A stretch of 4,513 nucleotides of DNA. Source: a virus. Taxonomy: Duplodnaviria > Heunggongvirae > Uroviricota > Caudoviricetes. Positions 1-262 of this stretch are shown here, in pieces. Within the stretch, counting starts at the first letter, position 1; every line of letters begins with the position of its first letter. Both the position numbers and the translations under genes were made by a program. The DNA is taken from the IMG/VR virus record IMGVR_UViG_2706794687_000010, one strand, 5' to 3'. Below the pieces are notes generated by a model. That model saw only the letters and a list, made by a program, of their open reading frames with translations, did no database searches and had not been told where the DNA came from.

Positions 1-214
1 AGTTAAGAGTGTGTTCCCGGGGTTTGCTTAGAATATTTTGTAAGTTGTCCGAAGAGATATTTACAACACCAGAATGATGAATCATCAGTCCCCTGCCAGA
101 GGTTCACTACGTAACCTGACCGACAATGCACCATTCTGGTGCTGAAAAAAGAGCACTGGAACTGCAACAAAACAACATCACAGAACAGGAGATGGTAAGG
201 AGTCAGACATTCCC

Positions 215-228
215 ACACAATATTGTGT
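215..228. repeat. 14-bp perfect palindrome ACACAATATTGTGT, candidate operator or RNA hairpin
   Basis: Read directly: positions 215-228 are self-complementary across all 14 bp. It lies about 35 bp downstream (minus-strand sense) of the tRNA-Gly 3' end, in a region with no convincing ORF. Confidence 0.5.
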
Positions 229-262
229 CAGTGCAAATAACAACCTTCGTCTCAAATCTCGC

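Follow-up and report, generated by a model that had tools for sequence, protein, structure and literature searches.

Lambdoid prophages of pathogenic Escherichia coli and Shigella hide regulatory RNAs between the late promoter and the lysis genes, and some of these RNAs rewire the small RNA (sRNA) networks of the host. The sRNA genes of lambdoid prophages cluster downstream of pR', where Tree et al. described anti-sRNAs of 51 to 60 nucleotides (nt) in convergent pairs (PMC4104026), and the Pas sRNAs of enteropathogenic E. coli (EPEC) occupy the same niche (PMC8550237; bioRxiv 10.64898/2026.05.13.724894). At the ends of the E. coli rRNA operons, the sRNAs rrA, rrB, and rrF are located between dual terminators (PMC8144298). 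Here, we analyzed a stretch of 4,513 nt from a virus of the Caudoviricetes (IMG/VR record IMGVR_UViG_2706794687_000010), referred to below as the window, and in particular its positions 1 to 262, which follow an array of four tRNA genes and contain a 14-bp palindrome. We conclude that these positions are the 3' trailer of the prophage tRNA transcription unit and that the minus strand, according to the fold predicted from related sequences, encodes a conserved structured noncoding RNA (ncRNA) of approximately 285 nt.

As Lalaouna et al. are said to have reported in 2015, 3'ETS-leuZ is an sRNA sponge cut from the glyW-cysT-leuZ trailer of E. coli. Like this RNA, the element starts directly after the last tRNA (boundary at position 263), ends at the intrinsic terminator of the operon (stem from position 4 outward), and would be released by tRNA 3' processing. 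It differs in that it is prophage borne, lacks sequence similarity to 3'ETS-leuZ, and is longer (approximately 285 nt with two large structured domains, as compared to approximately 50 nt). Phage T4 provides another parallel, namely, the stable RNAs "species 1 and 2," of unknown function, which are cotranscribed with the tRNA cluster and processed out; T4 is virulent, and the likeness is one of analogy only. The element resembles rrA, rrB, and rrF in that it forms the 3' extremity of a stable-RNA operon and would be part of the primary transcript, but these shorter RNAs belong to another type of operon and are not homologous to it. With AsxR, AgvB, and the Pas sRNAs, the element shares the niche between Q/pR' and the lysis genes in lambdoid prophages of pathogenic E. 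coli and Shigella, an end formed by a terminator, and a mosaic makeup in which a conserved part is joined to exchangeable parts; it is, however, several times longer than the 51- to 60-nt anti-sRNAs and unrelated to them. In Shiga toxin (Stx) phages, tRNA genes are located downstream of tR'. The order observed here, namely, Q, pR', tR', tRNA genes, and then DNA before the lysis genes, is that of Stx phages, and some of the matches are Stx phages with the same tRNA-Ile/Arg genes. The interval studied here differs in that it is not followed by a toxin gene and in that its trailer shows no similarity with the sequences of Stx phages; phi467, an stx2f phage, has its stx genes upstream of tRNA-Thr/Gly.

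The family is described by no Rfam model, nor is it described in the literature searched. A cmscan search of window positions 1 to 262 against Rfam 15 (4,227 families; E ≤ 1) returned no match, and the families without a match to the element include AgvB (RF02702), AsxR (RF02703), STnc100 (RF02076), and Esr41 (RF02676). The search itself works, since it returned matches elsewhere in the window (tRNAs, isrK, C4, c4-a1b1, and sRNA-Xcc1). In the full gap between tRNA-Gly and the holin gene of L002, a near-identical locus that was used for this gap and for the terminator scan, the only matches were two plant microRNA precursors (6059 to 6149), far below gathering scores. For a comparison with the Pas sRNAs, the PasA sequence was taken from the supplement of PMC8550237, the four Pas loci of E2348/69 were fetched, and blastn was run with a word size of 7. 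The PasA and PasC intergenic regions gave only chance matches of 10 to 19 nt within the element when compared with the window and the L002 gap, and one 50-nt match was located at the holin start, outside the element. In E2348/69, PasA and PasC are found between a SASA esterase gene and the holin gene on the opposite strand, PasB is found in the tail region, and PasD follows a DUF3927 gene. Identity with a Pas sRNA was rejected, given this lack of similarity and the location of the element directly after tRNA-Gly on the late strand. Literature searches with sequence strings retrieved unrelated primers only, and searches on tRNA trailers and phage tRNAs retrieved analogies only. Unannotated and present in about 4% of the complete E. 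coli genomes, the element is a further candidate for a hidden prophage RNA, unusual in its size, its tight link to tRNA-Gly, and its invariant long hairpin.

Conservation and distribution of the trailer

Sequence comparison indicates that the interval has been conserved as a module located directly behind tRNA-Gly(UCC) in lambdoid prophages of E. coli and Shigella. When 5,426 complete E. coli genomes were searched by sensitive BLAST with the full trailer as the query, 233 were found to contain it, in all cases on the chromosome, and the best-kept part corresponds to query positions 95 to 205. A pattern built from two conserved blocks matched 117 IMG/VR contigs; when the representative genomes of 185,579 species were searched with this exact pattern, E. 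coli and Shigella flexneri were the only carriers. Distant prophages match window positions 58 to 590 at 83 to 87% identity whatever follows downstream, and the downstream genes vary by locus (class II holin, two-holin cassette, TerB/DUF3927, or hypothetical proteins). In the loci collected, in which nhmmer recovered every copy of the module, 119 of 132 copies had intact flanks and were closely preceded by the 3' end of tRNA-Gly. These 119 copies correspond to 62 distinct sequences, 25 of which are at <95% mutual identity. The carriers include Shigella as well as enterotoxigenic (ETEC), Shiga toxin-producing (STEC), and enteroaggregative (EAEC) E. coli strains; Rac-type prophages located at ttcA are also among them, and two copies of the module are present in SerU-LTIIb, an LT-IIb toxin phage. 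Only two deposited phage genomes contain the module, and neither annotates an RNA there.

In the Shigella-like locus L030 (positions 2292 to 5100; also in L029), an IS3-family element is inserted into the trailer exactly at the palindrome, and approximately 1.1 kb downstream, past another insertion sequence (IS), there is a second, 5'-truncated copy of the module that starts inside the second domain described below. In the assembly L139 (NZ_CP026085.1, 2553000 to 2602000), labelled DH5alpha, a Rac-type prophage that appears to be complete occupies ttcA; it carries recET, kilR, ydaSTUV, tail, and terminase genes as well as the tRNA-Thr/Gly pair with its trailer. This prophage differs from that of K-12, and the strain label or the assembly may be in error.

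Predicted fold of the trailer RNA

To derive a common fold, 18 variants were aligned, each reaching from the tRNA-Gly 3' end as far as UGUUGUAAA (alignment A2, in which column identity averages 73%). RNAalifold predicted 51 pairs in six helices, with an energy of -46.95 kcal/mol. A number of observations support this fold. (i) In total, 97.5% of the cells are paired, as compared to 34 to 54% when the 3' partners are slid by 1 to 3 columns. (ii) The covariation score of 0.258, as compared to ≤0.088 for the slid versions, was reached by none of 500 shuffles. (iii) Changes on both sides are seen in 10 of the 51 pairs (41 cells), and double substitutions occur in five of the six helices at a mean column divergence of approximately 27%. 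(iv) There are 179 G-U cells versus 7 A-C cells, and the fold thus works far better for the minus-strand RNA (97.5% of cells paired) than for the plus strand or a DNA cruciform (78.7%). Compensatory changes on one strand, the generic mark of a structured ncRNA, are therefore present, in a set of only three to four lineages that was retrieved in part by pattern. When the window sequence was folded alone, the minus strand reached -82.8 kcal/mol (z = -1.55) and the plus strand -64.1 kcal/mol (z = -0.66); the minus-strand fold contained both the palindrome hairpin and the long one as well as the terminator.

The tRNA-Gly 3' end is joined to the first domain by a variable linker (236 to 262, minus strand, as for all parts of the fold) that corresponds to the indel-rich and poorly conserved columns 1 to 35 of A2. 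Domain 1 (152 to 235) is closed by the invariant helix H1, GCACUG/CAGUGC (229 to 235 with 152 to 158), and encloses three smaller helices. Two of these, H3 (211 to 214 with 187 to 190) and H4 (177 to 180 with 169 to 172), show double changes, H4 being the weakest helix, with 84.7% of its cells paired. The H4 segment (169 to 180) is G/U rich and reads CUGUGAUGUUGUUUUGUUGCAG in the window lineage only, the other lineages being different; its run UGUGAUGUUGU presumably also occurs in the R1 seed region of GcvB, which we take as a lead and not as a test.

The third helix, H2, is the palindrome itself and follows GCACUG directly. The original prediction of a perfect 14-bp palindrome, ACACAATATTGTGT, at positions 215 to 228 was accurate; the palindrome cannot be extended, since C214 and C229 do not pair with each other. 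RNAalifold and the single-sequence fold both form it as a hairpin, and all 18 variants have an inverted repeat at this position, with differing stem sequences. The stem changes from ACACA/UGUGU to GCGUA/UACGU, which involves two double changes, with loops of 2 to 10 nt; at column pair 45/59, 10 variants have G-C and 8 have A-U. In DNA letters, relatives carry, for example, CACA-TTTTA-TGTG or GCGTA-T7-TACGT here. Pairing is thus kept while the stem sequence is lineage specific, indicating an RNA hairpin rather than a conserved operator, and the idea that the palindrome might be an operator shared by related prophages failed at this point, other inverted repeats taking its place; the absence of the palindrome from related phages had been named beforehand as an outcome that would refute it. 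The palindrome alone is weak evidence, because 24% of the copies that a first-order Markov model generates from the 4.5-kb window contain a perfect palindrome of at least 14 bp and because a second one of 14 bp, TTTACGATCGTAAA, is present at positions 732 to 745; in Markov copies of the 262-nt stretch, this length is reached in 1.5%. It is the comparative data, not the palindrome, that set the region apart from chance.

Domain 2 (60 to 148) is a long irregular hairpin of 27 plus 6 pairs and is the most widely conserved part in the BLAST matches. Helix H5 comprises the 27 pairs (119 to 148 with 60 to 91), and the apical hairpin H6 (113 to 118 with 99 to 105) shows double changes in 4 of its 6 pairs. 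Two blocks are invariant, GAAUGGUGCAUU and CAUCAUYCYGRUGUUGUAA. Of the variants, 11 have A-U at pair 156/222 and 5 have G-C, and in the one deviant copy, copy b of SerU-LTIIb, GAAUGAUGUAUU, a G-U pair is changed to A-U and a C-G pair to U-G, such that pairing is kept. The U-run between the domains (145 to 150) pairs with GUAAA at the 3' foot of domain 2 (columns 145 to 150 with 228 to 233). A boxA-like sequence, UGCUCUUU, is present at the domain junction in the window lineage only.

The smaller stem-loop GCACC/ATTCT/GGTGC that had been pointed out at positions 129 to 143 is real but spans 128 to 142, one base to the left. In the window, CACCAGAAUGGUG (approximately 126 to 138) is complementary to CAUCAUUCUGGUG (67 to 79). 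The 5' arm of the stem at 128 to 142 varies without compensation within its own hairpin and covaries with 67 to 79 (pair 156/222), and the stem-loop is therefore the 5' arm of H5 and no unit of its own. Two candidate functions of 128 to 142 were rejected: that of a functional unit, given the uncompensated changes of its 5' arm in relatives, and that of a terminator, given that an A-run follows on the plus strand and a T-run precedes on the minus strand.

Exchangeable 3' modules and an alternative trailer

Downstream of the two domains, the trailer is mosaic. Two unrelated 3' modules, A and B, join after UGUUGUAA, and each has internal hairpins and its own terminator. The window carries type A (5 to 59, minus strand), for which an alignment of 25 representative variants showed a conserved UAAGCAAA..CC.GG.AA.ACA.CUUAAC before a GC-rich terminator with a covarying stem. 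In phage phi467 and in vB_EcoS-689R5, the same tRNA-Thr/Gly genes are followed by a different stretch of approximately 290 nt (minus strand; 2210 to 2501 in L137 for phi467 and 2211 to 2504 in L138 for vB_EcoS-689R5), with a terminator just before the holin gene. This alternative trailer, in which nhmmer detected no similarity to that of the window, forms three perfect long-range stems of 9 to 14 bp, GTCTTTCAGTC/GACTGAAAGAC, TATGAATGATCGC/GCGATCATTCATA, and AAGCACTCT/AGAGTGCTT. A structured trailer after tRNA-Gly is the rule, and the present family is one solution.

The tRNA transcription unit

All genes of the window are on the minus strand, and their order is therefore given from right to left. 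The unit consists of a tR'-like terminator, a promoter-like site, the four tRNA genes, the trailer, and an intrinsic terminator at the window edge, and it is located between the gene for the late-gene activator Q and the lysis genes. That positions 1 to 262 are downstream of a tRNA array holds, the array covering positions 263 to 573. ARAGORN and the Rfam tRNA model (56 to 70 bits across the array) identified genes for tRNA-Ile2/Met(CAT) (497 to 573), tRNA-Arg(TCT) (419 to 495), tRNA-Thr(TGT) (341 to 416), and tRNA-Gly(TCC) (263 to 337). ARAGORN reads the first of these as Met(CAT), and PGAP annotates it as tRNA-Ile in all related genomes; it is presumably of the ileX type, in which case its CAT anticodon would be modified and AUA would be read. 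Relatives have either Arg(TCT) or Lys in the second slot.

Upstream of the array, the terminator scan revealed an intrinsic terminator (666 to 687, minus strand) consisting of AAACCCGCCGATGAGCGGGTTT and a T-run. It follows Q directly in VL40 and UMNK88, and its position in VL40 makes it likely that this terminator served the late promoter as tR' in the ancestral arrangement. In the window, the block of isrK, C4, and antirepressor genes has been inserted between Q/pR' and the terminator at 687 to 666. A candidate sigma-70-like promoter (583 to 612, minus strand; TTTGCA, an 18-nt spacer, and TATTAT; 9 of 12 consensus positions) ends approximately 10 nt before the first tRNA gene. This site is a consensus match, and its function as a promoter is putative; its TATTAT hexamer at -10 recurs upstream of the arrays in relatives with other flanks and other Q families. 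A free-standing promoter in or just before the trailer was rejected, the sole match (349 to 322) being inside the tRNA genes; this match is probably incidental, since the D-arm of tRNA-Gly would have to serve as its -10 element. In the moron layout, a promoter, genes, and a terminator of their own are present inside the late operon (Juhala et al. 2000, cited in PMC4104026). The terminator of the present unit is clear, and its putative promoter is the 9/12 match with the recurring -10 hexamer.

The left context of the window was read from L064, a 100%-identical contig that reaches further left. The intrinsic terminator that closes the unit, AACUGCCUUGGCUGGCGGUU followed by UUUUGU, covers positions 1 to 4 and approximately 16 to 22 nt past the left edge (minus strand; 6004 to 5985 in L002). 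In L064, the terminator reads AACTGCCTTGGCTGGCGGTT and a T-run from window position 4 onward, and the same sequence is present in L002. Its stem covaries in relatives (CUGCC/GGCGG versus CCGCC/GGCGG). A second strong terminator, GGCCATCAG...CTGATGGCC with a T-run, is located between the first one and the holin gene, and on the late strand there are in total three terminator-like sites between tRNA-Gly and the holin gene.

According to one of the two original predictions, the interval might be the regulatory leader or operator of a cargo or late gene situated immediately past the left edge of the window. The next minus-strand gene in L064 instead encodes a P21-type holin (PF04971), with its ATG 419 nt beyond position 1 and behind two intrinsic terminators. 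It is followed by lysozyme-sized and Rz/Rz1-sized open reading frames (ORFs), an HNH-like ORF, and terminase-sized ORFs. Among these genes, only the holin was checked by Pfam; the names of the others follow from their size, their order, and what PGAP annotates in near-identical loci, and that of the HNH-like ORF follows from the HNH endonuclease annotated in related loci, which it matches. In the near-identical E. coli chromosomes VL40 (98.4% identity) and FDAARGOS_943 (99.7% identity), tRNA-Gly is followed by 681 nt without PGAP annotation and then by genes for a class II holin, the lysozyme RrrD, and Rz. No stx, toxin, or other cargo gene was found downstream of the interval in L064 and the annotated relatives; the interval is not a toxin promoter region and should be annotated accordingly.

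Further left, within approximately 400 nt before the holin gene (5582 to 5985 in L002), there are a plus-strand terminator-like site antisense to the late genes (5829 to 5850), an 11-bp inverted repeat, CCCGCCAGCAA/TTGCTGGCGGG, and a strong late-strand terminator (5649 to 5623). An antisense sRNA of the convergent type is possible in this segment.

Possible role of the trailer and alternative explanations

Our preferred explanation is that a discrete functional RNA is derived from the trailer of the tRNA operon, to which we assign an even chance. The idea that the region might encode a small RNA holds insofar as it contains a conserved, structured, noncoding minus-strand module that ends in a terminator; it does not hold as to the size, which is approximately 285 nt, or as to a free-standing gene, since the module is colinear with the tRNA operon. 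The RNA would be made by cotranscription with the tRNAs, either when late transcription modified by Q passes through the unit or by initiation at the promoter-like site (583 to 612), and would be freed on processing of the tRNA-Gly 3' end. Almost fully base paired and ending in a terminator hairpin, it may then persist, and it would most likely act itself, as a protein-bound or base-pairing regulator or as a sponge. RNAs cut from the ends of stable-RNA operons may serve as a precedent by analogy. In the lysogen, the trailer terminator and the second terminator before the holin gene would bar transcription of the tRNA operon from the lysis genes. If a stable RNA is indeed formed, the idea of regulators at the ends of tRNA operons would extend to phage tRNA cassettes, and it would provide a handle on why phages carry such cassettes as units. 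A more elaborate proposal, which we consider tentative and rather less than probable, is that the two-domain core of approximately 200 nt represents a new structured ncRNA family coupled to phage tRNA-Thr/tRNA-Gly, which is cut from the tRNA precursor and kept stable. In this proposal, a specific factor of the host or the phage would recognize the invariant hairpin and the 3' modules would be alternative effector or seed ends, making the core the prophage counterpart of the stable RNAs of the T4 tRNA cluster.

Several points weigh against a functional trailer RNA. We infer the existence of a discrete stable RNA from sequence and predicted fold, and the z score of the single-sequence fold is modest (-1.55). 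The 18 variants represent only three to four lineages, which leaves few independent compensatory events and means that relatedness inflates the shuffle test. As 11 of the 18 sequences were retrieved by a pattern on the H5 arms, the invariance of the H5 blocks is partly built in; the same blocks are carried by the 7 sequences derived from BLAST. IS elements break the module in Shigella-like loci. Finally, the module is dispensable and exchangeable, since the trailer of phi467 and vB_EcoS-689R5 is unrelated, and this would also fit a spacer that acts purely in cis.

Such a cis-acting spacer, which we regard as doubtful but far from negligible, would be structured so as to offer RNase III or RNase E sites and exonuclease blocks, which would keep the tRNA precursor apart from the downstream late mRNA. 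Jointly with the terminators, it would insulate the lysis genes, and the released fragment would be functionless. The early processing sites of phage T7 and lambda sib may serve as parallels for cleavage by RNase III. With its irregular duplex of approximately 30 bp, domain 2 resembles the substrates of RNase III, and H5 and H6 together amount to 33 pairs with small internal loops, above the minimal irregular duplex of about 20 bp. The trailer of phi467 and vB_EcoS-689R5, of the same style and another sequence, suggests that architecture outweighs sequence, and the three late-strand terminator-like sites before the holin gene agree with insulation. A generic duplex, however, needs no invariant blocks, whereas those of 12 and 19 nt are unchanged across lineages that are approximately 30% divergent elsewhere, and the conserved single-stranded stretch before the terminator of module A resembles an sRNA seed followed by a terminator.

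It is unlikely that the trailer is nonfunctional filler, that is, a spacer or relic whose conservation stems from recent shared ancestry and recombination. The narrow distribution in Escherichia and Shigella, the absence of the module from some phages with the same tRNAs, the IS insertions, one of them exactly at the palindrome, and the mosaic 3' end would all be expected of filler. Filler would not account for pairing that is kept via double substitutions in five of six helices at this divergence, for the strand-specific enrichment of G-U pairs, or for the retention of the module beside many different downstream genes in 233 genomes.

The explanation as a DNA operator or leader, in which the palindrome would be the repressor site of a cargo or late gene to the left, is already largely refuted and has become very improbable. 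It was attractive given the perfect 14-bp palindrome and the location of the region in the moron zone between pR' and the lysis genes, where the stx promoters sit in Stx phages. Against it, the next gene is that of a holin and not a cargo gene, 419 nt away behind two intrinsic terminators; only the pairing ability of the palindrome is kept between lineages; the excess of G-U over A-C cells favors RNA over duplex DNA; and such a palindrome is expected in 24% of windows.

The view that the interval has no convincing ORF agrees with our analysis, in which short ORFs were found, none of them conserved or with a Pfam match. They comprise a 71-amino-acid (aa) ORF that starts with GTG (3 to 218, minus strand), a 61-aa ORF that runs into tRNA-Gly (126 to 311, plus strand), and an ORF from the ATG at position 85 (minus strand) that extends past the window edge and whose length comes to 98 aa in an identical contig. 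Pfam returned nothing for the products of 71 and 98 aa, and PGAP annotates nothing at these ORFs in near-identical genomes. Across the 62 variants, the ORF from the conserved ATG varies from 18 to >55 aa; most variants start with MHHSGVV, and the frames differ after the first 7 to 8 residues, the sequences diverging because of 1-nt indels and the swap of the whole 3' part. A coding gene was rejected, as length and frame vary and Pfam is empty. A small protein encoded by the ORF from ATG 85 or by the 71-aa ORF is hardly credible, even though the conserved ATG followed by CATCAT... specifies MHHSGVV in most variants and PGAP calls a hypothetical protein from ATG 85 in some genomes (for example, L006), since the products are unrelated between lineages after residue 8 and the 3' arm of H5 occupies the same nucleotides as the conserved codons. 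The hypothetical proteins called at the trailer in some genomes are probably spurious.

Other features of the window

Upstream of the tRNA unit, the gene for the Q antiterminator (1807 to 2214, minus strand; PF06530) is separated from the tRNA genes by an inserted regulatory block. This block, entirely on the minus strand, consists of a promoter-like site directly after Q (1802 to 1773), isrK (1690 to 1766; 77.5 bits), c4-a1b1 (1727 to 1779), the C4 antisense RNA (1581 to 1664; 71 bits), sRNA-Xcc1 (1364 to 1447; 77.4 bits), all four RNAs being above their Rfam gathering scores, and an ORF6N antirepressor-like ORF identified by Pfam (763 to 1332). We take it to resemble the immI (c4-icd-ant) modules of P1/P7 and the IsrK-AnrP module of Gifsy-1. 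The isrK/C4/antirepressor block is lacking in VL40, where Q is directly before the terminator. The second palindrome, TTTACGATCGTAAA, is located just after the stop of the antirepressor-like ORF, where the similarity to VL40 resumes.

A masked run of 41 N (2260 to 2300) lies inside a gene of the nin region. On either side of this run, five IMG/VR contigs, L064 among them, match the window at 100% identity; the run corresponds to 256 nt in such contigs (2374 to 2629 in L014). Further upstream, there are genes for a DnaB-type helicase (2593 to 3984, minus strand) and a fragment of an IS3-family transposase with rve/rve_3 domains (4100 to 4513, minus strand). The IS3-family fragment abuts the helicase gene (3985 to 4125 and 4100 to 4513) in the place where VL40 has a helicase-loader-like ATP-binding gene, and the replication module of the prophage therefore appears to be truncated by the IS.

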